Origin: Oscillospiraceae bacterium
GTDB lineage: Bacteria > Bacillota > Clostridia > UMGS1883 > UMGS1540
Reading direction: 5' to 3'
NCBI GenBank assembly: GCA_015068765.1
Contig: SVJY01000005.1
Coordinates: 1,968 to 65,967, forward strand
DNA: 64,000 nt
Positions within the stretch are counted from its first letter, which is position 1; every line of letters begins with the position of its first letter. Shown here one piece after another: positions 22,856 through 47,297 of the stretch. Under the pieces are notes generated by a model. That model ran no database searches, was not told the DNA's origin, and saw only the letters and a program-made list of their open reading frames with translations. The position numbers and the translations under genes were made by a program.

Positions 22856-23836
22856 CTATTTAAATTCAAAAAGCTTCACATCAATAATTTCATGAAATTT
22901 TTCTTTGGAACCATTCATTTTCTGATACAGAATCGAAGATGCCTTATCTGCCCAACCGCCATCTGTCATACCGACACTGATACTTACACCGGGACAGTAT
23001 AAATGTGCATTGATAGCATCAAAACCCACAACAGGTACCGTTGATACAATGGGATGTGATTTAAATCTTGAAATAATCTCAAAAGCAATCAAGTCAGAAA
23101 ATGCAATAATTGAATCGAACGGAATCTTATCCGTCAGAATTTTTTGCAACACCGATTCCACATAATTGGATTTGGGTTCCATTTCAATAAACATAGCTTC
23201 GGAAACATGTATCCCTTTTTCCTCGAATGCTTTTTGTATGCCTTGAAACCTGTTTCCGCTCGACTCAATATATTTGTATGCGCCGATATACAGCGGATTT
23301 TTACAGCCCTGCCCCGCAAGATACTCTCCCAGAATGTAGCCGGACTTAAAATCATCACCGCAAACATAATCCGTATCTATCTCCGAAAAAAATCTACCAA
23401 TCAGAACATACGGAATATGTAACCCATTTAAAAACTCTATATTTTTTGTACTGTGTTGCGATGGGCAAAGTAAAATCCCGTCAACACTCTTACTACATGC
23501 GGTTATAATGGCATCCCGTTCCGTCTCTTCGCTTTCATTTGTATTTAAAATCAGCACCGTATACTGCATAAGACGCATCTTGTCTTCAATCAGTTTAATC
23601 TGATATGCAATATGCGGATTGGAAATATCGGGTACAATTGCCGCAATTGTTTTTGACTTTCCCGAGCGTAGGGATGTTGCAGATGCGTTTGGAATATATC
23701 CTAATTTTTTCGCGGTTTTTAAAACTTTCTCTCTGGTTTCCTCCGATATGTCGTCTCTTCCGTTCATTACGTGAGAAACCGTTCCTATTGTTACGTTCAG
23801 CTCTTGAGCGATATCTTTTAATGTTACTTTTTTCAT
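22856..23836 (-). CDS. LacI/GalR-family transcriptional repressor
   Basis: 326 aa. N-terminal HTH (VTLKDIAQELNVTIGTVSHVMNGRDDISEETREKVLKTAKKLGYIPN) plus a periplasmic-binding-protein-like sugar-binding core. Confidence 0.9.
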   Translation of the reverse strand: MKKVTLKDIAQELNVTIGTVSHVMNGRDDISEETREKVLKTAKKLGYIPNASATSLRSGKSKTIAAIVPDISNPHIAYQIKLIEDKMRLMQYTVLILNTNESEETERDAIITACSKSVDGILLCPSQHSTKNIEFLNGLHIPYVLIGRFFSEIDTDYVCGDDFKSGYILGEYLAGQGCKNPLYIGAYKYIESSGNRFQGIQKAFEEKGIHVSEAMFIEMEPKSNYVESVLQKILTDKIPFDSIIAFSDLIAFEIISRFKSHPIVSTVPVVGFDAINAHLYCPGVSISVGMTDGGWADKASSILYQKMNGSKEKFHEIIDVKLFEFK

Positions 23837-23880
23837 TCCACTTACCTCTCTGTTTATTAAATTATAATGTATTTTTTACC

Positions 23881-23906
23881 AATTTGTCAATAACTATTGA
23901 CAAATT
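23881..23906. promoter_or_regulatory. 26-bp palindrome carrying two back-to-back TTGACA -35 boxes for divergent promoters (LacI gene and the MPE-GH2 operon)
   Basis: AATTTGTCAATA-AC-TATTGACAAATT. On the plus strand TTGACA is followed by 17 nt and then TACTAT. On the minus strand TTGACA is followed by 18 nt and then TATAAT, upstream of the LacI start. Confidence 0.55.
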
Positions 23907-23920
23907 CTTGATTTTATGCT

Positions 23921-23936
23921 ACTATAACGATATAGT
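23921..23936. promoter_or_regulatory. LacI-type operator candidate (16-bp palindrome centred on CG) overlapping the -10/+1 of the plus-strand promoter
   Basis: ACTATAA-CG-ATATAGT. The 18-mer TACTATAACGATATAGTG recurs in the same promoter context at 46483-46501 on the minus strand. A second palindrome, TGACAA-T-TTGTCA, lies at 23936-23948. Confidence 0.55.
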
Positions 23937-23965
23937 GACAATTTGTCAGAAAGGATGCACTTCAT

Positions 23966-24889
23966 ATGGGAAAGGATATTCTGTTCGGAATTTGTGCGGA
24001 TGCACACCAATCCATACAAAACGATATTTCAGGCAGGATTCGTGCTTTTGTAGAAGAAGCTTCAAAGCGAAAGGCAGATTTTATCATTCAGCTTGGTGAT
24101 TTTGTGTTGCCGGATGCCTCCGGTGAAAAAGCCCTCGCGGCGTGGAATAAATTCAGCGGCCCCCGTTATCATGTGCTTGGGAATCACGATACGGAAATGG
24201 GCGGCAAGGAAGCTGTAATGTCCTTTCAGGGACAGAAAGAAAAATATTACAGCTTTGATGCCGGGGATTATCATTTTATTGTTCTCGATACAAATTACTT
24301 TAAATACGGCGACGATTTTATAGATTATAAAGATCTCAATTATCGTGCTTCCGAATCCTTCAACTGTTACATTCCTCCTTTTCAGCTAAAATGGCTTGCC
24401 GAGGATTTGGATAAAACAGATAAACGTTGTTTTATTTTTACCCATGCTGCACTTTGCGTTGGTGACTGGGTGGTTTATAATTTACATGAATTTATGGACG
24501 TTTTATGGCTCGCCAACCAAAAAGCAGGCTTTAATAAGGTAACGATGTGTTTTTCAGGGCATGACCACGCCGATGCCTATCTTTTCAAAGGCGGTATCCA
24601 TTATGTTCTGGTAAACAGCTTAAGTCATAAATATATCGGCCCGAAATACACACAGCATTCTTCTCATGCGACGACGGTGGAAAAGGAATACGGAAAGCTG
24701 GATTATGTTGTACCGTATAAAGATCCTCTGTATGCATTTGTAAGGCTGAAGGAAAACGGACTGATTCAGATTATGGGAAAACAGTCGGAATATGTAGGGA
24801 ACAGTCCTATGGAATTACACTGGGAGCATTATGCTTCTCCCCAAATTTCGTATAGGGAGGTATGGATGAATGGCATTGGCGAATTATGA
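23966..24889 (+). CDS. Calcineurin-like metallophosphoesterase
   Basis: 307 aa. Motifs GICADAH, QLGDFV, GNHD and GHDH. Paralogous to the ORF at 52473-53555 (shared YYSFD.G..HF.VLD.NY). Confidence 0.85.
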   Translation: MGKDILFGICADAHQSIQNDISGRIRAFVEEASKRKADFIIQLGDFVLPDASGEKALAAWNKFSGPRYHVLGNHDTEMGGKEAVMSFQGQKEKYYSFDAGDYHFIVLDTNYFKYGDDFIDYKDLNYRASESFNCYIPPFQLKWLAEDLDKTDKRCFIFTHAALCVGDWVVYNLHEFMDVLWLANQKAGFNKVTMCFSGHDHADAYLFKGGIHYVLVNSLSHKYIGPKYTQHSSHATTVEKEYGKLDYVVPYKDPLYAFVRLKENGLIQIMGKQSEYVGNSPMELHWEHYASPQISYREVWMNGIGEL

Positions 24890-27095
24890 TATGATACTCC
24901 GCGACGGTTGGAAATTTCATCACGGAGAGCTTGACAGAGTCAGCGAAATGCCCATTAACTTATCCCATGCCACCAGTAAAGCCGGCGGTGCCCTGAAAGA
25001 ACTGGATATGTTCAAAGAAGAAACCGTATGGCAGTCTGTGCGCGTACCCCATGACTGGGCAACGGAGCTGCCTCTCGATAAAGAGGCATATGCCGCAGGC
25101 GGTTTTAAAGAAAGAGGAACGGGATGGTACTTTATTTCTTTTCGTTTGCCCGAAGATGAAATCGGCGATGCCAGCCTTATATTTGACGGCGTACTGGGAA
25201 AATGCGAAGTGTTTGTAAACGGTACTGTGGCAGGACGGAATTTCAGCGGCTATAACCGCTTCAGCTTTGATGTGGGCGATTATCTGCTGGAAAACGAGGA
25301 AAATTCCATCGCCGTTTATGTCGATGCAAGAAGATGGGAGGGCTGGTGGTATGAAGGTGCCGGTCTTTACAGAAATGTTTACTTACAATTTCGTGGCAAA
25401 TCCCATTTAGATATGGAAAAATGCTTTGTCAGAAGCGAAAAAAAGGACGGCCGATGGATGGTAGAAGCCGATTTAATCGGCATCGGCACGGATGAGACCA
25501 TGCAGTATCGCCTTTGTCTTACGGACAAAAAAGGAAACTGCATAGGAACGAAAACCGCTTCAGCAAAGGGAGAAACCATTGCCATGCCGGTGGAAAATCC
25601 GACGCTCTGGTCGCCGGAAACGCCGGAATTATATACCCTGACTTGTACCCTTGAAAAGGATGACGAAATCCTGGATACCTTTAAAGCAGGGGTGGGCTTT
25701 CGCCTAATAGAATGGAAAGCGGACGAGGGTATGTTTTTGAACGGAAAGCGGTATCCCGTAAAGGGAATCTGCTGTCATCAGGATCATGCAGGCGTAGGCG
25801 CGGCAGTACCGGATGCACTCATGGAATACCGCATTTCCATATTGAAATCGCTCGGCATCAACGCCTACCGCTGTGCCCATCACGCTCCGACAGAAACACT
25901 TTTAGAAATATGTGACCGTCAGGGAATGCTTGTGATGGTTGAAAACCGAAATTTTGCGGTATCAGAAGATGTGCTGCGCCAGCTTTCTTCTCTTGTTTAT
26001 GTTTCCAGAAACCATCCCAGCGTATTTTTATACAGTTTATTTAATGAAGAGCCATGGCAAAGAGAAGACCGCGGCAGGCGCATTGCCGAAAAAATGCGGG
26101 CGCACATTTTAAAGCTGGATGATACCCGTCCCATCACCGGTGCGCAAAACGGCGGGCTTCTGGAAAAATCCAATGCTTCGGACGCACTGGACGTCATCGG
26201 TGCAAACTATCATCTTGCCGAGTATGATTCTTCCCACGCACGCACGCCGAACAAGGTTATGATCGGAACAGAAAACTGCCCGACCTATGCTACAAGAGGT
26301 GTGCATGCCACCGACAAGGATAAACAAATTTTTGCAAACTACAGCGAGGACTGGGGGGACTTTTCGGAGTCGCTCACCGAAACGATGCACACGGCATTTT
26401 ATAAGCCATACGTGGCAGGCTGTTTTGCATGGAGCGGTTTTGATTACAGAGGGGAGCCGACGCCTTATGGCTGGCCAAGCGTGCTGTCCCATTGGGGCTT
26501 TACCGATTACTGCGGATTTCCAAAGGACCACGCCTATCTTCTTGCCTCATGGTACAGAGAAGAATTGTTTGTGCACCTCTTCCCCCATTGGAATCATACG
26601 CCGGGCGAGGTGGTGCGCGTATGCGCCTATACCAACGCCGAAAAGGCGGAGCTTTTTGTAAACGACTGCTCGCAGGGCGAAATTGCCGTAACCGACTGTC
26701 GTGCCGAATGGCGCGTGCCCTTTACACCGGGTACGATTCGGGTGTGCGCCGCCCGAAACGGACAGACCGCACGTGACGAAGTGAAAACGGCAGGCGCGCC
26801 TGCTTGTATCCGTATTTTGAATACAACACCGGACAAAGCGGATGCAGATGCGCACATTGTGAATGTGTGTATAACGGATGCGGACGGGACGGTAGTACCC
26901 GACTGCAATAAAACGGTATCCTTTGCCGTACCCGCCGGTACCCTTTTAGGGGTTGGCAACGGCGATCCGAACGGACACCTCAATGAAAAAGCAAACAGCA
27001 TCCCGCTTTTCAACGGCTTTGCGCAGCTTATCACCACCGCCGATGCCGTAACGGTAAGCACCGAAGGACTGCCGGACGCACATATCCGATTATAG
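24870..27095 (+). CDS. Glycoside hydrolase family 2 (beta-galactosidase/beta-mannosidase/glucuronidase-type)
   Basis: 741 aa, cytoplasmic. Sugar-binding jelly roll (WYFISF...LIFDGVLGKCEVFVNG), an Ig-like linker (LWSPETPELYTL), and a TIM barrel with RCAHHAP and the acid/base motif NHPSVFLYSLFNEEP. GGGAGG RBS 9 nt upstream. Overlaps the preceding gene by 20 nt. Confidence 0.9.
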   Translation: MALANYDMILRDGWKFHHGELDRVSEMPINLSHATSKAGGALKELDMFKEETVWQSVRVPHDWATELPLDKEAYAAGGFKERGTGWYFISFRLPEDEIGDASLIFDGVLGKCEVFVNGTVAGRNFSGYNRFSFDVGDYLLENEENSIAVYVDARRWEGWWYEGAGLYRNVYLQFRGKSHLDMEKCFVRSEKKDGRWMVEADLIGIGTDETMQYRLCLTDKKGNCIGTKTASAKGETIAMPVENPTLWSPETPELYTLTCTLEKDDEILDTFKAGVGFRLIEWKADEGMFLNGKRYPVKGICCHQDHAGVGAAVPDALMEYRISILKSLGINAYRCAHHAPTETLLEICDRQGMLVMVENRNFAVSEDVLRQLSSLVYVSRNHPSVFLYSLFNEEPWQREDRGRRIAEKMRAHILKLDDTRPITGAQNGGLLEKSNASDALDVIGANYHLAEYDSSHARTPNKVMIGTENCPTYATRGVHATDKDKQIFANYSEDWGDFSESLTETMHTAFYKPYVAGCFAWSGFDYRGEPTPYGWPSVLSHWGFTDYCGFPKDHAYLLASWYREELFVHLFPHWNHTPGEVVRVCAYTNAEKAELFVNDCSQGEIAVTDCRAEWRVPFTPGTIRVCAARNGQTARDEVKTAGAPACIRILNTTPDKADADAHIVNVCITDADGTVVPDCNKTVSFAVPAGTLLGVGNGDPNGHLNEKANSIPLFNGFAQLITTADAVTVSTEGLPDAHIRL

Positions 27096-27115
27096 GAAGG
27101 ACAGGATGTGAGTTT

Positions 27116-27844
27116 ATGAAAATTATTGCCGACACGCATACGCACACAATTATGTCCGGACACGCACATTCCACGCTGCTTGAAAACATTCGTGCGGCAA
27201 AAAGCCGCGACCTTTCGTTTTTATGCGTAACAGACCACACAGGCATCATGCCGTGTGCACCGGACAATACATATTTTTCCTGTATGCGCGCCACACTTCC
27301 CGATATATATGAGGGTGTATATTTGCTTCGCGGCTGTGAAGCAAATATACTGGACGAAACAGGACGGCTGGATGTGCCGGAAGGTGTACTGCAAAAGCTT
27401 GAATGGGTTATTGCTTCCATCCACGGTATTTTAACAAAGCCGATGGATGAGATACGGCACACACAGCTCTGGTGCCGGATTGCGGAAAATCCCCATGTGG
27501 ATGTTATCGGGCATTGCGGGGAGGAGGCTTTCCGCTTTGATTATGAGGAGGGCATCCGTGCTTTTGCGGCACATAAAAAAATTGTGGAAATCAATGCGTA
27601 TTCCTTCCGGAGCCGCCCCACAAGCCGCAAAAACTGTATGGAAATTGCGCGGCTTTGCCAAAAGCACGGCGTTCCGCTCGTTATATCCTCTGATGCACAT
27701 TTTGCAGGTGGTGTCGGCGACGTGCAGACTGCGATTGACCATCTTCAGGAGGCAGGCATTGAGGAGCGCAGCATATTAAATGTAAATACAAACCGTTTTG
27801 CACAATATGTAAGTGCAATGACAGGAAGAACTTTTAATGTATAA
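27116..27844 (+). CDS. PHP-family phosphatase (YcdX-like)
   Basis: 242 aa. MKIIADTHTHTIMSGHAHSTL...CVTDH parallels the N-terminus of E. coli YcdX. Confidence 0.85.
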   Translation: MKIIADTHTHTIMSGHAHSTLLENIRAAKSRDLSFLCVTDHTGIMPCAPDNTYFSCMRATLPDIYEGVYLLRGCEANILDETGRLDVPEGVLQKLEWVIASIHGILTKPMDEIRHTQLWCRIAENPHVDVIGHCGEEAFRFDYEEGIRAFAAHKKIVEINAYSFRSRPTSRKNCMEIARLCQKHGVPLVISSDAHFAGGVGDVQTAIDHLQEAGIEERSILNVNTNRFAQYVSAMTGRTFNV

Positions 27845-27849
27845 GGAGA

Positions 27850-29259
27850 ATGAATATGAAAAAAGAAAAACTGACCTTTGCCTTATTTTTCGGCAACCGC
27901 GGCTTCTTTCCGGGAGAACTGATTGCCGCGGCACGCGAAGATATGCAAAGGGTACTTACGGAAAACGGCTACGACTACATCGTCATGGATGAAGCCGCCA
28001 CACGCTACGGTGCTGTGGAAACCATTGCAGAAGGGAAATTATACCACGATTTTCTGGAAGCACACAAAGGGGAATTTGACGGCGTAATCCTTTCCCTCCC
28101 GAATTTCGGGGACGAAAACGGTGCCACGGTTGCACTTCGGGATGCCGGCGTTCCCATTTTGGTGCAGGCATATCCGGACGAAGCCGGAAAAATGGACTTC
28201 GCCCATCGGCGCGATTCGCTTTGCGGCAAAATTGCCATGTGCAACGTACTTCGCCAATGCGGTATCGCCTATACTTTGACGAAAGATGCTACCACTAACC
28301 CAAACAGCGAAGCCTTTAAAAAAGATCTTGCCTATTTTGCCGCTATATGCCGCGTTGTGCGAAGACTTAAGCATTTCAACATCGGTGCCATAGGCGCAAG
28401 AACAACTGCTTTTAAAACGGTACGTGTGGATGAAATTGCCATGCAGCGTGCCGGCATTAACATTGAAACCATTGATTTAAGTCTTGTTTTTGATTTAATG
28501 GACAATGCAGATGCCGACTTACTGGCAGAAAAGAAAAAATACTATGCATCCATTACAGATTTCGGCACATACCCGCCGGAAAAACTGGACAACATCGCAA
28601 GGCTCGGCGTTGCTTTGGATAAGCTGATTGCGGACTATAATCTACAGGCTGTCGGCGTTCGTTGCTGGGAGGAATTCCAAAAGCGGTATGCCATTGCCCC
28701 ATGCCTTGTACTGAGTGACCTTAACGAACGTGGCATTCCGGCGGCATGTGAACTGGATGTAAACAATGCGGTTATGATGTACGCCCTGCAGGAGGCATCC
28801 GGCGCACCCGTAATGCTTCTGGACGTAAACAATAACTACAAGGATGACCCGAGCAAAACCATTCTCTTCCATTGCGCGGCAATCCCCCGCTCCTTCTATG
28901 CTTCCGAAACAAAAATCGGCGAGCATCTTATGTTTAAAAAATCCTTTGGCGAGGGAAGCGGCGTCGGTATTGTAAACGGCGAAATTTGTACGGGCGAAGT
29001 AACGCTCGGCAGCTTTAAGACAGAGGACGGTGTGCTCCACGCCTTTGCGGCTGATGCAACCCTTACAGAGGATGCAATTGAAGACGCATTTTTCGGATGC
29101 GGTATTGTGGCAGAGGCAGAATGTATGCCGAATCTTCTGACACATATGCTTGAAAACGGCTACCGCCACCATGTGGCAATTGCAAAAGGACAATGGGCGA
29201 AGGCAGTCGGCGAAGCCATGGATAAATATCTCGGCTATGTAATAAAAGTAATTCAATAA
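27850..29259 (+). CDS. L-fucose/L-arabinose isomerase-family sugar isomerase (short ~470-aa form)
   Basis: 469 aa. The N-terminal FGNRGFFPGELI..., the later NFGDENG, and the overall length fit the FucI-like family (COG2407 type). Confidence 0.75.
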   Translation: MNMKKEKLTFALFFGNRGFFPGELIAAAREDMQRVLTENGYDYIVMDEAATRYGAVETIAEGKLYHDFLEAHKGEFDGVILSLPNFGDENGATVALRDAGVPILVQAYPDEAGKMDFAHRRDSLCGKIAMCNVLRQCGIAYTLTKDATTNPNSEAFKKDLAYFAAICRVVRRLKHFNIGAIGARTTAFKTVRVDEIAMQRAGINIETIDLSLVFDLMDNADADLLAEKKKYYASITDFGTYPPEKLDNIARLGVALDKLIADYNLQAVGVRCWEEFQKRYAIAPCLVLSDLNERGIPAACELDVNNAVMMYALQEASGAPVMLLDVNNNYKDDPSKTILFHCAAIPRSFYASETKIGEHLMFKKSFGEGSGVGIVNGEICTGEVTLGSFKTEDGVLHAFAADATLTEDAIEDAFFGCGIVAEAECMPNLLTHMLENGYRHHVAIAKGQWAKAVGEAMDKYLGYVIKVIQ

Positions 29260-29274
29260 TAGGAGGAAAAAGAA

Positions 29275-30159
29275 ATGAACAAGCTTGGCATTTTTATGAA
29301 CTTCTGGGAGAAAAACTGGGACGCAGACCACGCAAAATACATTAAAAAGGCGGCAGAAATCGGGTACGACATTCTTGAATTTCAGGCACAGCCCCTGCTT
29401 GAAATGTCGGACGAAAAGCTGAAATTCTTAAAAGCACTTGCGGATGAAGTCGGCATTGAGCTTACGTATAGCCTCGGTCTTGACCCGAATTACGATGTGT
29501 CTTCTCCGGACGAAGCCGTGCGCCTTGGTGGCGTGGATTACCTCCAGAGAATTATTCGCCAGATTCAAAAAATGGACGGCACACTTCTGTCCGGCGTAAG
29601 CTACGCAGGTTGGGGGACTCCAAACTATGTTTTAAATGATAAAAGACCGCTTCTTGAAAATAGCCTCAAAAGCATGCGCGAAATTATCAAAGTCGCCGAG
29701 GAATGCGGCGTTACATACTGCGTGGAGGCCGTAAACCGTTTTGAAGGTTGCCTCATCAACACAGCGCAGGAAGCCCTAGACTATGCGGCAGAAATCGACA
29801 GCCCGAATATCGGCGTACTGCTCGATACATACCATATGAACATCGAAGAAAATTCTATCGGCGATGCCATTCGCCTGGTCGGCAATAAGCTCACAAGCTT
29901 CCATACCGGCGAAAATAACCGTACCGCCCCCGGCAAAGGGCATCTTAACTGGGATGAAATTTTCGGGGCACTTTCCGATATCGGCTATAAAAACAGAATT
30001 GTTTGTGAGCCGTTTGTTATGCAGGGTGGTGAGGTTGGCAGAGATATCCATGTTTTCCGTGACCTTATCGACAATCCTTCGGAAGCCAGAATTGACGAAG
30101 AAGCCAAATATATTTTAAACTTCGAAAAGGAAATGCTGAAAAAGTGGAATTTGGCATAA
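29275..30159 (+). CDS. Ketose 3-epimerase-like protein (D-psicose/D-tagatose 3-epimerase family, xylose-isomerase-like TIM barrel)
   Basis: 294 aa. LGIFMNFWEKNWDADHAKYIKKAAEIGYDILEF closely parallels the DPEase/DTEase N-terminus (GIYYAYWEQEWEADYKYYIEKVAKLGFDILEI, recalled). Also has CVEAVNRFE and LLDTYHMNIEE metal ligands. Confidence 0.8.
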   Translation: MNKLGIFMNFWEKNWDADHAKYIKKAAEIGYDILEFQAQPLLEMSDEKLKFLKALADEVGIELTYSLGLDPNYDVSSPDEAVRLGGVDYLQRIIRQIQKMDGTLLSGVSYAGWGTPNYVLNDKRPLLENSLKSMREIIKVAEECGVTYCVEAVNRFEGCLINTAQEALDYAAEIDSPNIGVLLDTYHMNIEENSIGDAIRLVGNKLTSFHTGENNRTAPGKGHLNWDEIFGALSDIGYKNRIVCEPFVMQGGEVGRDIHVFRDLIDNPSEARIDEEAKYILNFEKEMLKKWNLA

Positions 30160-30194
30160 CCCTTTTCTACCCTCGTTAAAAAGGAGAGGTTTTT

Positions 30195-31679
30195 ATGCAA
30201 GCTGAATTATATATAAATAAAAATTTTGTTATCGGCGATATTGACAACCGCATTTACGGTTCTTTTATCGAGCAATTCGGCAGAGCCGTATACGGCGGCA
30301 TCTACGAGCCAGACCATGAAACAGCGGACGAAATGGGCTTTCGGCAGGATGTTCTGGAAAAGGTGCGCAAGCTGCACGTACCCATTGTGCGGTATCCGGG
30401 TGGGAATATTCTGTCCGCCTATAACTGGGAGGACGGAACAGGCGACAAGGCCAAAAGACCGCAAAAGCTGGACCTTGCATGGAACACCATTGAACCGAAC
30501 ACGGTGGGAATTGATGAATTTCAGGCATGGGCAAAAAAGGCAGGCACAACCGTTATGATGTCTGTAAATCTCGGCACACGTGGTGTGGAAGAAGCAAGAA
30601 ATTGTCTTGAATACTGCAACGGGGATACGCCCACGTATTATGCCGATATGCGCCGTAAAAACGGTTTTGAAGCACCCTTTGATTTTAAATTATGGTGTCT
30701 CGGAAACGAGATGGGCGGCACGGCGCAAATGTGCCGGAAAACGCCGGAGGAATACGGCCGCCTTGCGGCAGAAACAGGAAAGGTTATGAAGCGGCTTGAT
30801 CCTTCCATCGAGCTTATCGCCTGCGGCAGTTCTCATCGCAACATGCCAAGATTCGGCGAATGGGAGCTTGTGGTTTTGTCGCACACCTACAGCATTGTTG
30901 ATTATCTTTCCATTCATCAGTATTATGACGCAGGCGCCAATGCATTACCTGACCTTTTGGCAAAAACGGTGGATATGGATGATTATATCAAATCGGTTTC
31001 TGCCATGTGTGATACAATTAAGGCGATAAAAAAATCAGATAAAACCATGTACCTTTCCTTTGACGAATGGAATGTATTTCCGAAGGACTTAAGCCAAAAC
31101 GGTGACGGAAAACGGGAATGCGGTTCCCCCCGTTTTGAAGGTACATATACTTTCGGAGATGCGCTGATGGTGGGCTGTATGATGATAACATTGCAGAAAA
31201 ACAGCGACAGGGTAAAAATAGCCTGTCTTGCACAGCTTGTTAATGCCATTGCACCCATTATGACAAATCCGGGCGGTAAGGCGTGGCTGCAGACCATTTA
31301 TTACCCGTTTCTCTATGCATCCTTGTATGGCAGAGGTACTGCCTTGCGGACAGAAATCAAGTGTGATGCATATTCTACGGAAAAGCATCAAAATGTGCCT
31401 TATTTGGAAAGTGCTGTCATTCATAATGCGGAAAATCATGAGCTTATTTTGTTTGCAGTCAACCGCTGTATGACCGATGGGATGGAGCTTATACCCCTTT
31501 TTGAAAATTTCGGAGACTCTACGCTGATAGAACATATTGAATTATATGCAGAAAATCCGGAAGAAAAAAACACCGCCGAAAAGGAATCTGTCAGGGCGCA
31601 AAATGTTCCCATCGGTGAAAAAATCATTCTGAAAAAACATTCGTGGAACATGCTGCGTTTTTCGTATACAGAATGTTGA
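30195..31679 (+). CDS. abfA: GH51 alpha-L-arabinofuranosidase
   Basis: 494 aa, cytoplasmic. IYGSFIEQFGRAVYGGIYEP, VRYPGGNILSAYNWEDG, the acid/base motif WCLGNEMGG and the nucleophile motif LSFDEWNV. Confidence 0.9.
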   Translation: MQAELYINKNFVIGDIDNRIYGSFIEQFGRAVYGGIYEPDHETADEMGFRQDVLEKVRKLHVPIVRYPGGNILSAYNWEDGTGDKAKRPQKLDLAWNTIEPNTVGIDEFQAWAKKAGTTVMMSVNLGTRGVEEARNCLEYCNGDTPTYYADMRRKNGFEAPFDFKLWCLGNEMGGTAQMCRKTPEEYGRLAAETGKVMKRLDPSIELIACGSSHRNMPRFGEWELVVLSHTYSIVDYLSIHQYYDAGANALPDLLAKTVDMDDYIKSVSAMCDTIKAIKKSDKTMYLSFDEWNVFPKDLSQNGDGKRECGSPRFEGTYTFGDALMVGCMMITLQKNSDRVKIACLAQLVNAIAPIMTNPGGKAWLQTIYYPFLYASLYGRGTALRTEIKCDAYSTEKHQNVPYLESAVIHNAENHELILFAVNRCMTDGMELIPLFENFGDSTLIEHIELYAENPEEKNTAEKESVRAQNVPIGEKIILKKHSWNMLRFSYTEC

Positions 31680-31698
31680 CTTTAGAAAGGAAGACAAA

Positions 31699-32331
31699 AT
31701 GAAATCAAGACGAATCAATCATCTCTTGTTTGACTATGCCCGAACCATTGTGGAGCATCCCTTGGACGGCGCAGGTAAGCAAATTTTACGGAACACCGGT
31801 CTTACAGATGAAACAGATATTGAATTTTTTCAAAAGGCTGCCTTTTCCGTTGACAAGTACCTGAATCATCTGGATGAAGGCATTATGGAAAGAGATACTT
31901 ATAAACGCCTTCTGAAGGAAGAACTGCCGCTACACTTACACGGGTATGTCGAAGAAGCAGTCGATTATCATATGTGTGTCCTTCCGGCACTTCCCGGCAT
32001 GCTTGAACTTTTGAAAACGCTGAAAGAGGACGGCTTTAAGCTGTACCTTGTTTCCAACTTAGACCTTTATCATGCAAGACAAATGCACGAAATCGAAGCG
32101 GCTCCCTTTATGGACGATATGATTTTTTCTGCAGATATTGGTATACGGAAGCCTTATCCCGGCTTTTTTGATGCTGCCTGCAGGCAGTTTGGCGTTTCGC
32201 CTTCGGAGTGCCTTTTTATAGACGATCTGGAGGAAAACGTACAGGGTGCACGGGATTTTGGTATAAAAAGCTATGTTTTCCACGGCGATCCACAGGAACT
32301 CGAACGCTTCATTTATTCGGAAGCGATATAA
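31699..32331 (+). CDS. HAD-superfamily hydrolase with atypical motif I
   Basis: 210 aa. Motif I reads LLFDYARTIV (D-x-A instead of D-x-D). Motif IV is FIDDLEENV. Confidence 0.75.
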   Translation: MKSRRINHLLFDYARTIVEHPLDGAGKQILRNTGLTDETDIEFFQKAAFSVDKYLNHLDEGIMERDTYKRLLKEELPLHLHGYVEEAVDYHMCVLPALPGMLELLKTLKEDGFKLYLVSNLDLYHARQMHEIEAAPFMDDMIFSADIGIRKPYPGFFDAACRQFGVSPSECLFIDDLEENVQGARDFGIKSYVFHGDPQELERFIYSEAI

Positions 32332-32373
32332 ACTGCGATACGCATTTCAGTACAAATAAAGGAGAAGATTTTT

Positions 32374-35307
32374 ATGAAAAAAGGACTCACCCTGCTGCTC
32401 ACAATTGTATTGCTCTTTACAATGTCAGCGGTAAACACCACCGCCGTATCGTTCACCGATACGGAAGGAACAAAATGCGAAACCGCCGTCGGTGTTTTGG
32501 CGGCACTCGGCATTGTAGAAGGTAAATCGGAAGGCGTCTACGAGCCGAACAGCTTGCTCACAAGAGCAGAAATGGCTACAATTATTCTCCGTGCCATGGA
32601 TATGGACGGCGTTACTTTTGGCTGGAACATCTTTACGGACGTTCCCGCAAGTCACTGGGCGTATGCCAATATTGCAGCGGCGTATCAGCTGGGCATTATA
32701 AACGGCACAAGTGCCACTACCTTCGAACCGGATAAAAGCGTTACATACGAGCAGGCTGTAAAAATGGTTGTGGCTGCACTCGGTTACACTGTACAGGCAG
32801 ACGTTTTGGGTGGCTACCCCTCCGGATATCTTTCCAAGGCGGCACAGCTTGACCTTTTAAGAGGTGTAACACAAGGCGGCGAAATGACACGTGGCAATAT
32901 GGCAATTCTGCTCTATAACGCACTGGATACAGAACTATTTTTGCAGTACACCTTCGGCGAAGGTGCCTATGATTTTGAAAGCACCGAAACGAAAACCCTG
33001 CTTTCCTACTACCTGAAGGTAGAAAAGTGGATCGGCGAAATCACCGCCACCCCCATGGCACAGTTTGGGACCGCTTTGGAAGGCCGCAAGCTTTTGGGCG
33101 ATGAGGTTAAAGTGGGTGCCCAGATTATGAAAAAGGGCGAGACAAATGCACAGGATATGCTCGGCATCCGCAGTGACATCTATGCAAAGCGTGAGGATGG
33201 AAGCGAAATTCCTGTCATCTTGGCAATCGTACCCCGTGCAAGTGTAGAAATCATGGATGTCAGAGCACAGGATATTCAGTCCAAAACCGACACAGCAGAA
33301 TTTGTATATCTGGATGCGGCAGGTAAAGAGCAAGAGGTCAGTATTGCCGGTGCGACCTTTATCTACAACGGCCGCCAAGAAACCATGACAAACAACCTGA
33401 TCGTGCCTGAAATCGGAACGGTACGTCTTGTGGCTGAAGGGGGAAACGTGGACCTTGTTATGGTTTGGGAATATGAAAACCATATTGTGGAAAATGTTCT
33501 CTCCACAGAGAATAAGGTTTATTTTGCGGGAAGCGGTACGCCGTCTACGATCATTGATCTTAGTGACAACACCCTTCCCACTGTGATGACCGATGCGAAC
33601 GGAAATGGCGTTACCCTCGACAGCCTTATGCAATGGGATGTGCTTTCGATTGCCGAGAGCCTGCCGTCTAACACAAGCCGCGTTCGCCGCATTTATCGTT
33701 CCAATTCGCAGATTACCGGTGAAATCACCGAAATTATCAGCGGCACAGACGAGGTTGTCATCGGCGAAGATGTCTATTCCGTTGCGGCACCCCTAACGAT
33801 CAGTGACGTAAAGCTTGGGCAGAATGCAGCATATTACCTTGACTTTACAGGTGCTATCGCGGCAATGGATACAAGCTATGATACAAGCCGCATTTACGGA
33901 TGGCTCCAGAATGCAGAAAAGACAAAGGGCTTAAATGGTAAGCCGCAGCTGAAAATCTATACCCAAACCGGCGAATGGAAGGTATTCGATCTTGAGGAAA
34001 CCGTTCGCTTTAACGGACAGGGACGCGACAGTGCTTCCCTTCTGGATGCGACACGTGCAGAGGCGAATATCTGGGGGGATGACGTTGCACCTTCTTTTGT
34101 CGCAATAAACGGGACGGTTGTGCCACAGCTTATTTCCTATAAGACAAACGAGGCAGGTCTGATTACGGAAATTGAAACGGCAGTGAATAAGACCTCTCTT
34201 CTTAAAAAAGATGAAGAAAAATTCGGAGACGAATTCAGCATGGACATCTACCAAAATGATGTAAAACAGGTCCGTGCCTTCAACGGTGAAAAAGAAGGCT
34301 ATATGGATGATGCTTCCTATGTAGACGGTGGTCTGCAGTACCTGGACGGCGTGCTATTTAGTCGTGTGTATGCGAACAAAAACACCATTCTCTTTAAAAT
34401 CCCCAAAGACCCTGCCGTTGAAAGAGGATATAGTGTAGGAGCCGCGAACGTGCAGGGGCTGGCGATGATGGAATATCGCTCTTGGGGCTGTCTCTCCTAC
34501 TATGATATTGATGACAGCAATTTCTGCAAGGTTATGGTTATGCGTAATGACCTTATGTATGGAGATTCCGAAGAGGATACAACGGTGATAACCGCCTATC
34601 CTACCGCCTCTGTACCGGCTGCCATCATTACGAAAATCAGCACCGTTTTAAGCGAGGATGGCGAACCCATGCAAGTACTTAAGCTGGTGAACTGGAGTGG
34701 ACAGGAAATCAACGCTATCCTTACAGATTCTTTAGAGTATTGCTTGTATAAGGCTGCAAATGCAAATTTAACGGAAGACCTTGCTTGGTATACGGAAAAA
34801 GACGAAGACGGAACGAAAATACGCGGTGACTATAAGTATATTACAAATAAACATCAATACCGTAAAGAACTCTTCATGGATCCGGCGGATCTGACTGTCG
34901 GTGATGTCATCCAGTATTCGGTTGACAGTGAAAACAAGCTGACCATGGTATCGGTTGCGCACCGTGCAAACTATTCCGGCAATGTGGAATTTTCCGTAAG
35001 CTCGGGTGAAATTCTGTTACAGGGCACACGTGATAATTTCTATCGTGGCGGCAATTTCTCACTTTGCGGTACCGTAATCAAGGTTCTGAAATCGGGTATT
35101 TTGGTATCGACAAACATTGGCGATATCTTTGGTGACGATTCCCAGTTGGATGCCACCCGTATGCTGCCCACAATCGGTAATTTCTTTATCTGGAACAGTG
35201 AAAAACAGGCCCTGACCCAGTGTACAGCTACAGACTTCCTTCCGGAAGACTATATCTGGGCTTTCTGGGACACATCCGACCAGGAAATGGTTATTGCTTA
35301 CCGCTAA
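32374..35307 (+). CDS. Secreted cell-wall-anchored protein: signal peptide, N-terminal triple SLH domain and ~750-aa body of unknown function (paralog S1)
   Basis: 977 aa. Signal peptide MKKGLTLLLTIVLLFTMSAVNTTA. SLH repeats (FTDTEG...TRAEMATIILRAM; FTDVPASHWAYANIAAAYQLGIINGTS...TYEQAVKMVVAAL; ...TRGNMAILLYNAL). Paralog of 54798-57554. Confidence 0.85.
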   Translation: MKKGLTLLLTIVLLFTMSAVNTTAVSFTDTEGTKCETAVGVLAALGIVEGKSEGVYEPNSLLTRAEMATIILRAMDMDGVTFGWNIFTDVPASHWAYANIAAAYQLGIINGTSATTFEPDKSVTYEQAVKMVVAALGYTVQADVLGGYPSGYLSKAAQLDLLRGVTQGGEMTRGNMAILLYNALDTELFLQYTFGEGAYDFESTETKTLLSYYLKVEKWIGEITATPMAQFGTALEGRKLLGDEVKVGAQIMKKGETNAQDMLGIRSDIYAKREDGSEIPVILAIVPRASVEIMDVRAQDIQSKTDTAEFVYLDAAGKEQEVSIAGATFIYNGRQETMTNNLIVPEIGTVRLVAEGGNVDLVMVWEYENHIVENVLSTENKVYFAGSGTPSTIIDLSDNTLPTVMTDANGNGVTLDSLMQWDVLSIAESLPSNTSRVRRIYRSNSQITGEITEIISGTDEVVIGEDVYSVAAPLTISDVKLGQNAAYYLDFTGAIAAMDTSYDTSRIYGWLQNAEKTKGLNGKPQLKIYTQTGEWKVFDLEETVRFNGQGRDSASLLDATRAEANIWGDDVAPSFVAINGTVVPQLISYKTNEAGLITEIETAVNKTSLLKKDEEKFGDEFSMDIYQNDVKQVRAFNGEKEGYMDDASYVDGGLQYLDGVLFSRVYANKNTILFKIPKDPAVERGYSVGAANVQGLAMMEYRSWGCLSYYDIDDSNFCKVMVMRNDLMYGDSEEDTTVITAYPTASVPAAIITKISTVLSEDGEPMQVLKLVNWSGQEINAILTDSLEYCLYKAANANLTEDLAWYTEKDEDGTKIRGDYKYITNKHQYRKELFMDPADLTVGDVIQYSVDSENKLTMVSVAHRANYSGNVEFSVSSGEILLQGTRDNFYRGGNFSLCGTVIKVLKSGILVSTNIGDIFGDDSQLDATRMLPTIGNFFIWNSEKQALTQCTATDFLPEDYIWAFWDTSDQEMVIAYR

Positions 35308-35480: not shown

Positions 35481-37280
35481 TTATAGGATTTCGCTGGGCG
35501 TTATGCAGTTCTCATAAAAACGAATCAGTGCCGCTTCTTTGAAAGGAAGAACATCTTCCTCCAGCATTTCGATTTTTGCACGTTTGCCCGAAAGATAGTC
35601 CCGGATGACTTCTATTGCATATTCCATTCGATAAACGGTACTTCCGAATCGCGCTACCATAACTTCATACCCAAAGGGTTTATACACCGCTTTCCACTGC
35701 TTTTCAAAAAGACGGTGTAGCTTCCCCACATTTTCAATCACACGAGGCAACAATGTCCCGGCAGCATCCTCAAGATATTTCCTATTATTTTGTAAATACT
35801 TTTCACGCAGAGAAAATCGTAATTCTGCTTTATCTTTCAGAATTTCCAATACGGTAATATAGTACAAATACATTTCTTTATTTTCGTCGTTTTTCTCATG
35901 GGCGGCATATGCCATAGAAAGCGCCGTTTCGATGTCCGGCAGATAATGTGCATCCTCTTCGCCAAGTTCCGGCAACGCATAAAATGCATCGCCGTACAAA
36001 AGCGCATTCAGAAATGTGCGGTGCGGCCTGTCGGTAGGCATACCGTGAGCTTTGGAGAGCTTCAGCAGAAAATCTAAATCCACGCCTGTAAGAGACATTG
36101 CCGTATCATAAATTTCCGCCATGGAACAATCTATACCGCGATAGTTAAGTTCCGAATACAGCGCCAAAAGCGGCACCGCCAGAAAATGATTGGTTTCACA
36201 GCCGTTATCTGCCCACATGGTGGCAAACACTGTCGAAATGTTATTTTTAATTGCCGCGCGAAGGGAAGGAATGGCATTTGCAAATGCCATTTCCGTACGG
36301 GGTACGAAGCCAAACCAAGTCCACAGTCCACCTGCAAAAACTGTTTTTTCCGTAACCCGTTTATGATTTGCCAGCATCCGGTCAAAAAAGTCCTCATCTG
36401 TGCTGTAATAATCCCAGTACACAATTTCCAGTTCCTCCGGCACCAGTTCCTTCGGTACACATGTTTCTGTATCACGATAGGAGTGGGTTTTGGAGGCAAA
36501 ATTATAGAACATATCACTCCAGACCATGGGTTTGTAGGCATACTTTTTGCAGATAGAAACTGTTTTTGCAAGATGCTCTGCAAAAATCGCAAAACGGTCA
36601 TGAAACCCGTTTTCACGCAGGTATTTACCAAGCCCCATATCATGTGCCTCATCCATGCCGATGTGAATACGGTTAGAACGGAAACATCGGCGCATTACCT
36701 TGATACATGCTTCAATAAAGGTATATGTTGCATCACTTCCGATTTTCAAAACACTTGCCGTATCCCGTATGTCACCCGTAATACCGTCATACTTCAGATA
36801 CTGCGCCATGTGACCGAGCGTCTGAATACAAGGAATCACCTCTATGCCGAGTGCATATGCATAATCGTCAATTTCACGAAGTTCCGCTTCGGAATATCTG
36901 CCCCGGAGATACCCGAAGTAGGGATATTCTTTTAGTTCATATGTATCCTCCGTATACAGCATCAGCATATTCATACCGAGTGCCGCCATATACGTCAGAT
37001 ACTTCTTCACCGCTTCCACCTGCATAACGCCATTTCTTGAAACGTCTAACATAACGCCACAGGTTTCAAAAGACGGTTTTTGGCGGATTTCAAAGGCTGT
37101 TTTCCCCTTTCGGATTTCGGAAGCCAGCAAAAAGCATCCCCGGGCAAATGTACTTTCATCCTTTGCACCAATCACGGCATTTTTTCCGTCATAGGATACA
37201 TATACGCCGTCAAATTCTGTTCTTTCAATTTTTCCGTCAAAGGAAAAGTGCAATAATGAAAAAATATTTTTCTGTGTCAT
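35481..37280 (-). CDS. GH20 beta-N-acetylhexosaminidase (GcnA-like, cytoplasmic)
   Basis: 599 aa with no signal peptide. CGVMLDVSRNG..., LMLYTEDTYE, IPCIQTLGHM and the catalytic D-E pair in RIHIGMDEAHDMG. Confidence 0.85.
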   Translation of the reverse strand: MTQKNIFSLLHFSFDGKIERTEFDGVYVSYDGKNAVIGAKDESTFARGCFLLASEIRKGKTAFEIRQKPSFETCGVMLDVSRNGVMQVEAVKKYLTYMAALGMNMLMLYTEDTYELKEYPYFGYLRGRYSEAELREIDDYAYALGIEVIPCIQTLGHMAQYLKYDGITGDIRDTASVLKIGSDATYTFIEACIKVMRRCFRSNRIHIGMDEAHDMGLGKYLRENGFHDRFAIFAEHLAKTVSICKKYAYKPMVWSDMFYNFASKTHSYRDTETCVPKELVPEELEIVYWDYYSTDEDFFDRMLANHKRVTEKTVFAGGLWTWFGFVPRTEMAFANAIPSLRAAIKNNISTVFATMWADNGCETNHFLAVPLLALYSELNYRGIDCSMAEIYDTAMSLTGVDLDFLLKLSKAHGMPTDRPHRTFLNALLYGDAFYALPELGEEDAHYLPDIETALSMAYAAHEKNDENKEMYLYYITVLEILKDKAELRFSLREKYLQNNRKYLEDAAGTLLPRVIENVGKLHRLFEKQWKAVYKPFGYEVMVARFGSTVYRMEYAIEVIRDYLSGKRAKIEMLEEDVLPFKEAALIRFYENCITPSEIL

Positions 37281-37414: not shown

Positions 37415-40400
37415 CTATTCTCTGCGAAGCACATAAGCTACAGAGCATGGTTCCATAGCATTCCATTCCATTCCCACCATGTAAACATTCCCTTCTACCG
37501 GTCTTTCTTCATTCTCCATAATAATTGAAAGCAACTCTTTCACGCCGTTTTGTTCCGTATATACTGCTATAAATGCACGACCGTTATTTGATGCACTATA
37601 TAACGTATACGCCGTAGTCGGTATCGTGTGCCAGCGGACGTTATCGGAATAAAGTCCGGTCGTTTTCTCTGTCGAAATCTTGCAATATACCACTTCGCCC
37701 GGTAGCACGGTTACGGTTATTACATTATTTGAAAAACTTACACGAGTAGGATTCGTGCCTGCCAACGCCGTAACTGCATCACCGTTGACGGAAGCCGTAA
37801 ATGTTTCCGCCTCCGCGGCTCCGTTTGCAAAAAGATAATGTGTACAATCTGTTTCTTTCTGCGTTGCGTACCAGAATGTGTCAGATTGCCACACTCCATC
37901 CGAAAAAGCAAGATTAAAAACAGCTCCCTGTTCCTCTTTAGTCAGATGGGCGACATCAAACGATACATCTGGTTTTCCTGTATTCCAAGCGAGAATACGG
38001 TCCATCAAAACCGCCGCTTCCGCACGCGTTGTATTGGCAAGTGGTTCGATGGTTCCGTCCGCATTTCCGCGTACGATGTTACTGCGTACCAACGCTGCAA
38101 CATTCGCCACAACGTAATCTGCCACTAACTCGTCATCGGAGAAATTACGCAGATATGTTTCTGGCTCACCTTCTTCCAGTGCACGAACAAGACGCATACC
38201 GCGTGCACAAATCACCATTAAGTCCCGCCGGGAAATTTCCTCGGCAGGGAAGAAGTTCGTACCGTCTGTTCCTTTCAGAATACCAAGTGCCTTACCGATT
38301 GCGATTTCTTTTGCATAATACGCATTCGGGTCTACATCGGCAAACAGCTCCGTAGCATTGCTTGTAAGCCCCAGCGTGCGAATAAGGAACATGGCAAAAT
38401 CGCCTCTTGTTATTTTTTCATTAGGTGCATAGGATGCCGCCGTTTTACCAACTACAATCCCTTTGTTTTCCAAACGTCGAATCTGTTCTGCCGCCCAAGG
38501 GTAACTTTGCAGGTCTCTGAATTTTGTTGTATACAAATCCGAAAAATCAAGTGCTGTGCTCGATGTAATTTCATACACAAGTGCCGCATTGGGGGCAAGC
38601 GTTACGTCCAGTATTTCCCCATTGCCGCTTACCGAACCGCTTCCGCCGTATTTCAGAACGCCTGTATAACCGTTTATACGAACAGTACCGCCGTCGCTGA
38701 CAAGGGGAATGGAAACCGCCTGTTGCGTGTTCTTGCGATTTACAACAATCACGTTAATTTTGTTATTCTTAATATAGGACGTCCATAGGACATCACTGCC
38801 CCAAAAGCTGTTAAATATAGGATATTTCCGGCGTAGGAAGACGTCATAGGACTCCTCCATCTCTGCCTTTGCAAATTCCACAAGTCCCGGCCATAGCGGA
38901 GATGCATTTAAATCAAGTACATTGCCTTCTGCATCGGTATAGGCATCATAGAAGCAATAAAAACCGTTTCCGGTACTGCCTGCCATCAGGGATTCATACC
39001 ACATATTTCTTTCATCCATAATACTGGGGAAATACGTGCCTTCTAAATATGCCTGATTCAGGCACAGTGCCGGTTTATGATAATGAGAGCCCTGTGCCGC
39101 ACGCATGGAATACGTACCGACTTTCTGCAAATTATCCGGTGTGCCCGGATAGGGATCAATCAGAATCATATCCGTATATTTACCGTACCGCTCGTAATCG
39201 CTTACTGAATTTTGCGTCATCGTGACGGGGTGCTTTTTATCAATATCACGAATCAGCTTATAGGTGTCATAGAATAAATCCCAAGCATTCGGAAAATGCA
39301 GGGAAGGCTCATCCATAACAATCCAGCCTAAAAGGGCAGGATGGTCACACAGCTCCGAAACAACACGCTTTGTATTTTCATAATTGTCCGGATGTCCTGC
39401 AGGCTTCATGTCACCATACATACGGGCAAGCACCATAATCCCCTGTGCCTGTGCCGCATCCAGAAACGCTTCCAGCGGTGCCGTACTCTGCACAGTGTTT
39501 ACGCCGATTTCTTTCATGTACACAAGCTCACTTGCACGCACATGGTATGCAAATGTCGGATAAAATGGCTCGCCGTCCTTGCGTAAGGTTCCGTCCTCTG
39601 CCAGCATTGTAGGTCTTGCATACCGGGAAATCTTATCGGTTTCACTCCCGACCTTATTGCCGTCAGCATCGTAAATGGTGGCTGTCAGCTTATAGTCCTT
39701 GCCCTCTGTCGCCATCAGTCCCGGATCAAAATTCCATGTGGTTACGCCCTCCGAAATCTGACCGGAGCCGGATGCCAGAAGAGTCTCCGCCTCATCCCGA
39801 AGCGCAAAATCGACATAACCGCATGCAAGCTCCGGATGCTTTACTAAATCCGCTTCCGCAGTCGCAATACCCGTTTCCATATCCGAATAGTAAAATACTT
39901 CATCGGTACGAAGTGCAACCGGCCGATCCGGTGCCAGTTCTATCTGATAGAAGGAAACATCATCAAAATATGCCGTTCCGGGCGCAAAAATACGAACATA
40001 AAACATTACGAACGCCACACCTTTACAGGGCGGCTCGTAGTTTGCACAAAACTGCACCCATTCGCCGCTTGTGTATCCCGACTTATGTACCGAATAGCCG
40101 CCTAAGGGGTTCCCTTCTGCATCATAGCTTTCAAACTTACAGCCAACCGTATCAACCTCACCCTTATACCAAAAGTTTGCCTGAAATACGGCACCCTCTT
40201 CAAAAGTCGAACTGATGATTTGCTGTTTGCACCAAGGCAAATTGGTCTCTGTTGTCGTAATTTTCAGAGACCGACTTTCTGTATGGGCAACATCCGTTGT
40301 CACAGAAATATTTGTATTACCATTCCAGCTTTTACCATAAGGCGACCAATCGGAAGCAACGGGCAAAATACCTTCTTCAAAGCTATTGTTATCCAGCAAT

Positions 40401-41067: not shown

Positions 41068-41111
41068 CTAAAAACCAGGGACTGTTTAAATTTGACTTTT
41101 TAAACAGTCCC
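41068..41111 (-). terminator. Rho-independent terminator between P2 and P1
   Basis: Minus strand reads GGGACTGTTTAAA-N8-TTTAAACAGTCCC followed by TGGTTTTTAG. It lies only ~20 nt upstream of the P1 start (RBS AAAGGAAG). Confidence 0.6.
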
Positions 41112-46337: not shown

Positions 46338-46484
46338 ACTAAAAACCTCCTAAAAAATTTTATTCACCAAATTTATTTCCGTTCATTTTCCGTTCCTTTG
46401 CCGCATTAATTCTTTCGACTCCTTCCGTAACAACCGAACGTATCATTCCCTTATACCATCACACACAACTCCCAACCATTATTC

Positions 46485-46524
46485 ACTATATCGTTATAGT
46501 AACACAAAATATCCCGTTTGTCAA
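46485..46524 (-). promoter_or_regulatory. Sigma-A promoter with LacI-type operator for the 529-aa/P2/P1 operon
   Basis: Minus strand reads TTGACA (complement of 46519-46524), a 17-nt spacer, then TACTAT (complement of 46496-46501). The operator ACTATAACGATATAGT is the complement of 46485-46500. The 18-mer TACTATAACGATATAGTG is identical to the promoter at 23920-23937. Confidence 0.6.
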
Positions 46525-46648
46525 GAGGAAATAGAAAATTTATAACATTTACCTATAATACCACGTTTTATCTGTTGAAAACAAACAAACGCCGGACATC
46601 TTCTTAAAAACGGAAATACCTATACAATAAAGAAACCTCGAATCCGCC

Positions 46649-46921: not shown

Positions 46922-46973
46922 ACCATACCTCCTTTTGCAGCGGAGAAGGTTTCCCCTCTCTGCTGTGGCTACG

Positions 46974-47210: not shown

Positions 47211-47254
47211 TATTTCATATCGAATGTCAAATATTTCCGCAAATGCACTGCCAC

Positions 47255-47297
47255 ATAAAAAAAACTGAAGGCGTAAGTCAACCTTCTGACTTACGCC
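47255..47297 (-). terminator. Strong rho-independent terminator (minus strand)
   Basis: Minus strand reads GGCGTAAGTCA-GAAGGT-TGACTTACGCC followed by TTCAGTTTTTTTT. It probably ends the long minus-strand sugar operon. Confidence 0.65.

Follow-up and report, generated by a model that had tools for sequence, protein, structure and literature searches.

Two promoters share an operator-like sequence

The DNA analyzed here, which we refer to as the window, is a 64-kb stretch of contig SVJY01000005.1 from an Oscillospiraceae bacterium. It contains a single LacI-family gene (22856..23836, minus strand), encoding a LacI/GalR-family repressor of 326 amino acids (aa) with an N-terminal helix-turn-helix (HTH), a hinge, and a periplasmic-binding-protein-like effector domain. 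HTH_LacI (PF00356) was matched at residues 5-50 (57.2 bits vs a cut-off of 27), and the effector domain matched PF00532 (51 bits) and PF13407 (40.5 bits), both over their cut-offs. These matches confirmed the initial annotation of a LacI-family gene divergent from the first of two copies of an 18-mer. We found this 18-mer, TACTATAACGATATAGTG, at 23920-23937 on the plus strand and, as its reverse complement, at 46484-46501 on the minus strand, and an exact search of the window upheld the claim that it occurs at two places 22.5 kb apart. The second copy had been placed at 46483-46501, which is correct for a 19-mer but not for the 18-mer. The shared stretch is in fact one base longer than the 18-mer (TACTATAACGATATAGTGA, 23920-23938 and 46483-46501), and this 19-mer identity accounts for the 46483 coordinate. 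When up to three mismatches were allowed, these two copies were still the only matches in the window (shuffled sequences gave a mean of 0.02, and 0/100 reached two), so that the claim of no other intergenic copy also held.

Each copy lies within a promoter. Promoter 1 (23897..23925, plus strand), which precedes a catabolic operon, has the -35 element TTGACA at 23897-23902, a 17-nt spacer ending in TGc, and the -10 element TACTAT at 23920-23925. The operator O1, TACTATAACGATATAGTG itself (23920..23937), is a CG-centered palindrome whose left half-site is this -10 hexamer. Promoter 2 (46496..46524, minus strand) has TTGACA at 46524-46519, 17 nt ending in TGt, TACTAT at 46501-46496, and a 5' untranslated region (UTR) of ~150 nt; here too the operator, O2 (46484..46501, the reverse complement of TACTATAACGATATAGTG), supplies the -10 element. 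The distance of exactly 17 nt from TTGACA to the 18-mer and its TACTAT was as originally described at both promoters. The TGn directly 5' of TACTAT makes each an extended -10 element, with 10/12 hexamer matches plus TG. By sequence, both sites have the hexamers 16-18 nt apart, with the optional TG, of a sigma-A (sigma-70-type) promoter, as well as the hallmarks of a LacI/GalR operator, an even 16-22-nt palindrome centered on CG within a promoter region.

The 16-bp CG-centered palindrome originally described, ACTATAA-CG-ATATAGT, is present with this LacI/GalR geometry, but it is imperfect: read as ACTATA-A-CG-A-TATAGT, the bases flanking the CG are non-complementary, and 14/16 positions pair. 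The perfect form, ACTATAACGTTATAGT, is the one present in most orthologues. A search of the window with CTATANCGNTATAG at up to two mismatches returned three extra matches (36131, 38929 and 55520), all within open reading frames (ORFs), and these degenerate matches fit chance. The center of the operator lies 37 bp from the ATG at site 1 and 155 bp from it at site 2.

Conservation of the promoter-operator module

LacI orthologues were selected by protein similarity alone (54-75% identity; loci L001-L005, L034 and L035) and their DNA was fetched without reference to the motif; only these seven served as independent test loci. At 7/7 of them the LacI gene was divergent from TTGACA, 17-18 nt, and T[AG]CTATAAC[GC][AT]TATAG. 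In a MAFFT alignment of eight intergenic regions, the operon side was invariant only at TTGAC and CTATAAC..TATAG, and the spacers and 5' UTRs had diverged. The -35 element, the TG and the -10 element were conserved in the orthologues, the right half-site TTATAG(T) was as invariant as the -10, and no other conserved palindrome was seen in the aligned intergenic regions of the independent loci. Most orthologues carried the perfect TACTATAACGTTATAGTA, which in some was extended to 20-24 bp (e.g., TGTTACTATAACGTTATAGTAACA in L016). Locus L035 (54% identical) had two adjacent inverted copies with a CC/GG center at 3880-3912, ACTATAACCTTATAGT-c-ACTATAAGGTTATAGT. The closest LacI relative, P0002 (87% identity), was uninformative for the operator because an insertion sequence (IS) element with an rve-family transposase lies right after the lacI -35 element (L031 1009-1097, L032 1-258). 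It has taken the place of the divergent operon together with its promoter and operator, but has left the promoter of lacI intact.

We also scanned 185,579 species genomes for the exact pattern TTGACAN{16,18}TACTATAACGWTATAG. This yielded 19 stretches in 18 genomes, 16 of which were metagenome-assembled genomes (MAGs) of Clostridia, Oscillospiraceae or Acutalibacteraceae, from gut or rumen, and metagenome contigs contributed 6 further stretches with the promoter-operator pattern. In these motif-selected loci, it is the features outside the query that are informative, namely LacI adjacency, downstream genes and tandem operators. A LacI orthologue adjoined the site in 14 fetched loci and in the window, plus 2 metagenome loci. 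The initial annotation had named many unrelated genomic copies as the mark of a generic repeat, an idea that we rejected, as the genomes of relatives have 1-2 copies each. Across ~330 kb of related DNA, all matches to CTATAWCGWTATAG at up to two mismatches were perfect, except the two-mismatch match in the ORF at 55520 of the window.

These comparisons bear on whether the 18-mer is a promoter element only, that is, an extended -10 or discriminator for RNA polymerase or an alternative sigma factor, with an incidental palindromy and no repressor. The left half is a usable -10 element after TG, and in some orthologues the lacI -10 coincides with CG-less palindromes such as CTATAATTATAG, which shows that -10 regions here tend toward this sequence. 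However, an element of this kind does not account for a right half-site that is invariant like the -10, nor for the tight linkage of the site to one LacI orthologue group. Moreover, a full second operator without a -35 element lies 3-30 bp downstream of the first in L012, L017, L018 and L023 (and a partial one in L026), and such a tandem copy is also present in L035, an independent locus; the palindrome is therefore more than a -10 box. We consider the promoter-only explanation extremely unlikely. An element acting at the RNA level was rejected as well: neither promoter region had a match in Rfam at E up to 1, the fold of the site-2 5' UTR was no better than that of shuffles (z +1.3), and transcription is predicted to start within the right half-site, so that the palindrome would not be transcribed whole.

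The adjacent LacI-family protein as the candidate repressor

A protein from a 'Ruminococcaceae bacterium' MAG matches the window LacI at 100% identity, and a protein search returned more than 100 orthologues at 50-87% identity. The window LacI scored under the cut-off of all named NCBIfam equivalogs (RbsR, PurR, CcpA, GalR/GalS, CytR, FruR, TreR and others), the best being RbsR (165 bits vs a cut-off of 382), and it is not orthologous to any curated named regulator. Across 114 orthologues, the HTH and hinge (residues 1-60) were nearly invariant, with the consensus VT(V/I)GTVSH(V/A)(L/M)NG...A(S/A)LRSGK, a degree of conservation that matches that of the invariant operator. In the solved PurR, LacI and CcpA complexes, the hinge leucine intercalates at the CpG in the middle of the operator. 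This leucine could be aligned with that of CcpA (1rzr; 'pnasatsLrsgks' in the query vs 'pnavargLaskkt'), and the hinge motif A-x-S/A-L-R was kept in the 114 orthologues. A paralogue that is 42% identical (L036), located beside a raffinose-synthase-like gene, has a different recognition helix (SVNTVSH), and the palindrome at its locus has a different placement and a different half-site, ACATTAACGATAATGT. That both helix and half-site differ is expected if operator specificity tracks the protein.

It is possible that the palindrome is instead the operator of another factor encoded elsewhere, such as CcpA or another LacI paralogue, and that the adjacent LacI protein binds otherwise. At seven sites (L006, L008, L010, L012, L013, L018 and L023), no LacI gene lies in the 8 kb that was fetched, and analysis of the source organism was limited to the 64-kb window. 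These unlinked sites can be explained, though, as second members of the same regulon. In MAG SIG652, for example, one contig carries a LacI-linked copy (L024), and another carries a double operator before a gene for a 1505-aa BNR/Big_2 protein (L023). At 7/7 independent loci, furthermore, the LacI orthologue is adjacent and divergent, and those intergenic regions hold no further conserved palindrome. We specifically rejected a catabolite-responsive (cre) site for CcpA: the cre consensus TGWAANCGNTWNCA had no match at up to one mismatch at 23920-23937 or 46484-46501, no cre-like site was found at either promoter, and the window LacI is far under the CcpA cut-off. Taken together, these observations make control by a different factor very unlikely. 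The ORF beside the seemingly orphan site in L006 was considered as a possible IS element and rejected, as it bears no resemblance to the L031 transposase and its sequence is AraC-like.

In the interpretation that we consider likely, the adjacent LacI/GalR-family repressor recognizes the 18-mer as its operator, which is fused to a core promoter, and a repressor dimer occludes RNA polymerase at both promoters until a sugar effector relieves the block. From features observed in the sequence, which are conserved and linked to this LacI orthologue group, we infer binding, repression, transcription starts and an effector that would act as follows. The dimer would bind the CG-centered palindrome (T)TACTATAACG(A/T)TATAGTA(A), the left half-site of which would double as the -10 element in a strong promoter of the sigma-A type (TTGACA, 17 nt, TGn, TACTAT). 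The consensus -35 element and the extended -10 TG would compensate for a weak -10 element, TACTAT, that is dictated by the half-site. Bound in this position, the repressor would cover both the -10 element and the transcription start, preventing RNA polymerase from binding or from forming an open complex, and a sugar or sugar-phosphate effector on the C-terminal periplasmic-binding-protein-like domain would cause its release. As the same module is predicted to head both the divergent catabolic operon and a second operon at a distance of 22.5 kb, which encodes CBM4_9/SLH proteins that are secreted or on the cell surface, a single repressor would bring about the co-induction of extracellular glycan capture or degradation with intracellular sugar processing. 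The initial proposal of a LacI/GalR-type operator over the -10 element, bound by the divergent LacI protein, is well supported for site 1 by the orthologous loci, the tandem copies, the HTH/hinge invariance, the contrast with L036 and the family-typical geometry.

Several observations weigh against this interpretation. The L035 variant indicates that operators of this group do not strictly need the central CG. Loci L006-L030 were retrieved by means of the motif, and the conservation of the motif within them is therefore circular. Two stretches from unrelated phyla, L020 (5643-5681) and L022 (5454-5493), match the pattern exactly over 39-40 nt; in neither case did the 8 kb that was fetched contain a LacI orthologue, and core-regulon genes were absent downstream. 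L020 is from Paenibacillus melissococcoides, with the site before a small HTH-like gene, and L022 is from a Chloroflexota MAG. The composite pattern can thus arise outside this system, and these two matches are probably chance or convergent promoter sequences. As for site 2, its 155 bp from the start codon is just beyond the typical 30-140 bp, and it lacks orthologous upstream regions to footprint because the first gene behind it encodes the 529-aa protein, for which homologues are lacking.

Features between lacI and the catabolic operon

A separate promoter (23861..23890, minus strand) serves lacI, with TTGACA at 23890-23885, an 18-nt spacer and TATAAT, a 12/12 match. Its -35 element stands back-to-back with that of the catabolic operon, 6 bp apart, creating the apparent palindrome AATTTGTCAA-N6-TTGACAAATT at 23881-23906. 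We rejected this palindrome as a second operator. Among orthologues, the gap between the two -35 elements varied from 2 to 19 nt, and the sequence is therefore that of two divergent -35 boxes and not a binding site of fixed geometry. The operator is centered ~75 bp ahead of the position where lacI is predicted to start, and simple occlusion by the repressor would therefore not be expected to autoregulate lacI. At the lacI -10 of three orthologues, operator-like CG-less palindromes of the form CTATAA(T)TTATAG were seen that are not in the window (L003 9974-9986; L004 9965-9976, equal to L024 4001-4012; and L035 3969-3981). They could be weak autoregulatory sites, or could merely result from the closeness of the half-site to a -10 box.

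The initial annotation also listed an extra palindrome immediately downstream of the operator, TGACAA-T-TTGTCA (TGACAATTTGTCA, 23936..23948), in the 5' UTR. This palindrome does exist and is unique in the window, but the orthologous promoters in L001 and L002 (75% LacI identity) lack it; we therefore rejected it as a conserved element and regard it as lineage-specific and of doubtful function. Together with the operator, its minus strand forms a promoter-like match directed toward lacI (CTGACA, 17 nt, TATAGT; 10/12), in which the operator would serve as the -10 element; this match is not conserved either. Within 70 bp (23880-23948) there are four CAATTTGTCA-like copies, two exact and direct and two inverted with one mismatch; two of the four are the -35 boxes, and the downstream pair is the non-conserved palindrome. 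The extra palindrome and its minus-strand promoter-like match are probably incidental.

The catabolic operon downstream of site 1

Downstream of site 1 lie nine tightly packed plus-strand genes (23966..35307), with no intergenic gap above 42 bp. A search between the genes gave no convincing terminator, and they probably form one operon. These genes include those for a metallophosphoesterase (23966-24889), a GalA-like GH2 protein (24870-27095), a PHP protein (27116-27844), a 469-aa FucI_C-type isomerase (27850-29259), a 294-aa ketose 3-epimerase with a xylose-isomerase-like TIM barrel (29275-30159), a GH51 protein over the NCBIfam ArfA cut-off (30195-31679), a HAD phosphatase (31699-32331), and a 977-aa SLH protein (32374-35307), all on the plus strand. 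The epimerase scored 385 against a cut-off of 300 for the NCBIfam D-psicose 3-epimerase, and matched solved D-psicose/D-tagatose 3-epimerases with E ~1e-77. For the isomerase, the only Pfam match was to Fucose_iso_C, a PDB sequence search gave no relative, and similarity to the sulfoquinovose isomerase SftI was weak.

Among the motif-selected loci, the isomerase was followed by the ketose 3-epimerase downstream of the site in 12, and L009 and L017 had the isomerase without a following epimerase. Besides the window, loci noted for this pair were L003, L005, L007, L011, L014, L016, L018, L019, L021, L028, L034 and L035. Protein sizes were uniform across loci under this LacI operator (466-472 aa for the isomerase and ~293 aa for the epimerase), and no kinase or transporter was consistently linked to the pair in the loci compared. 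The conserved regulon core would thus be a FucI_C-type isomerase and a D-psicose/D-tagatose 3-epimerase-type protein, with other members varying by lineage.

Three phosphoesterases (metallophosphoesterase, PHP and HAD) are present in this one glycoside-hydrolase operon. The metallophosphoesterase and GH2 genes overlap by 20 nt in the window, and their adjacent pairing recurs in L002 and L035. The occurrence of phosphoesterases with glycoside hydrolases, and the recurrence of this pairing, suggest that the substrate is a phosphorylated glycan.

Site 2 and the surface-protein genes

Site 2 is followed on the minus strand by two genes, one (44748-46337) for a 529-aa CBM4_9 protein whose N-terminus resembles a signal peptide and the other (41120-44734) for a CBM4_9/SLH surface protein of 1204 aa. 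Next are genes for a 1210-aa CBM4_9/SLH protein (37415-41047, minus strand) and a GH20 hexosaminidase-like protein (35481-37280, minus strand), and the membership of these two in the unit headed by O2 is uncertain. Between the two large SLH genes is a hairpin (41078..41111, minus strand), a possible terminator or attenuator, with a perfect 13-bp stem (GGGACTGTTTAAA...TTTAAACAGTCCC) and T-rich tails on both strands. It may limit read-through, and the 1210-aa SLH and GH20 genes would belong to the unit only if it is read through. The CBM/P2/P1 surface operon of the initial annotation is thus possibly broken by this strong hairpin. On the other side, a terminator with a 14-bp stem (47268-47299, minus strand) insulates site 2 from an upstream sugar cluster. 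That cluster (47528-52457, minus strand) encodes a GH38 alpha-mannosidase, a D-lyxose/mannose-isomerase-like cupin, a PfkB kinase and a second xylose-isomerase-like TIM barrel. It contains no operator copy and ends at the strong terminator at 47268-47299, and it looks like a separate mannoside-utilization unit.

The region upstream of site 2 has two further features, namely a truncated-looking 90-aa ORF resembling the N-terminus of a serine recombinase/resolvase (46649-46921, minus strand), just upstream of the promoter, and a stretch of low G+C content (0.40) at 46000-48000. The former may be a remnant of a mobile element beside an orphan CBM/SLH operon, and there is a hint that the region was acquired or rearranged. 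These features raise the possibility that site 1 is a genuine operator and that site 2 is a non-functional or weak by-product, for example a promoter fragment copied with a mobile element. Consistent with this, the first gene downstream is an orphan (the 529-aa protein found no homologue but itself in a set of 5.8 billion proteins), the 5' UTR is long, and both copies share the genome-specific last bases TAGTGA, as would fit a recent copy. However, a copied promoter and operator would still be bound by the repressor, so that the origin of the site would not decide its function. The spacers of promoters 1 and 2, moreover, differ at 8/15 compared positions while the 19-mer is intact, suggesting selection on the site, and no competing strong promoter was predicted ahead of the 529-aa gene. 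Second copies in other genomes also precede lineage-specific, glycan-related genes: a GH36 gene in L019 and that of a heparinase-like protein in L010, in addition to the BNR/Big_2 gene in L023. We therefore consider a by-product at site 2 to be very unlikely. Of the original proposal that one repressor co-controls both operons, the part concerning site 1 has the backing of orthologue comparison and that concerning site 2 goes by analogy: the genomes of relatives suggest a small regulon that would span the site-1 and site-2 operons.

Relationship to known LacI-family regulators

The geometry of the operator described above is in keeping with the LacI family as a whole, in which 1173/1303 transcription factors have even, CG-centered palindromes of 16-22 nt, and multiple sites occur at ~20% of regulated operons (Ravcheev et al. 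2014, PMC4052901). The system also has the other features of local LacI/GalR sugar regulons (PMC4052901; RegPrecise): the combination of HTH_LacI with a periplasmic-binding-protein-like domain, a regulator gene divergent from its target sugar operon, one to few targets, and occasional tandem sites. It differs from them in that its LacI orthologue group matches no named NCBIfam equivalog and comes from MAGs of uncultured Oscillospiraceae/Clostridia, and in the unusually fixed position of the operator, whose left half-site is always the -10 hexamer. The operator motif string was not found in the literature searched, and searches of the literature on a LacI/psicose-epimerase regulon returned nothing relevant.

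CcpA structures (1rzr, 3oqm) were the best PDB sequence matches of the window LacI (E 6e-30), and the two proteins have in common the hinge leucine and a CG-centered pseudo-palindromic operator. The NCBIfam CcpA score was, however, 118 against a cut-off of 442, and CTATAA, as a half-site, departs from that of cre (TGWAAN) at 5/9 specified positions. CcpA is also a global regulator, in contrast to the local, operon-linked LacI protein of the window. The repression predicted here would resemble that by E. coli PurR and LacI, in which a dimer under ligand control obstructs RNA polymerase from a palindrome that overlaps the core promoter or the start site. The O1 operator of E. coli LacI is centered at +11, and this repressor relies on looping to auxiliary operators, whereas here a single site coincides with the -10 element, and tandem sites are present in some relatives only.

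Implications

The window LacI and its orthologues form a group that is new and unnamed, within a familiar type of regulation, the local LacI-family regulon. The regulation follows the textbook LacI pattern and holds no surprise for specialists. We suggest, tentatively and as a minority possibility, that this LacI group and its operator mark an undescribed route of rare-sugar metabolism in gut and rumen Oscillospirales, with a FucI_C-type aldose-ketose isomerase and a ketose 3-epimerase as its core. In gut Clostridia, D-psicose/D-tagatose 3-epimerases may have their native context in this isomerase and epimerase pair, which, if so, would provide a physiological setting for an enzyme family that is known mainly from biotechnology. 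The module TTGACA, 17 nt, TGnTACTATAACGWTATAGTA could also be of use as a compact repressible promoter part.

If this interpretation is correct, a promoter-operator cassette of ~45 bp would recruit lineage-specific surface proteins that bind or degrade glycans (CBM4_9/SLH proteins here, and BNR/Big_2, GH36 and heparinase-like proteins elsewhere) to the regulon. More generally, one sugar-sensing repressor is predicted to tie a cytoplasmic sugar operon to orphan surface carbohydrate-binding proteins in uncultured gut and rumen Clostridia, and this predicted shared control would give these orphan surface proteins a likely substrate context.

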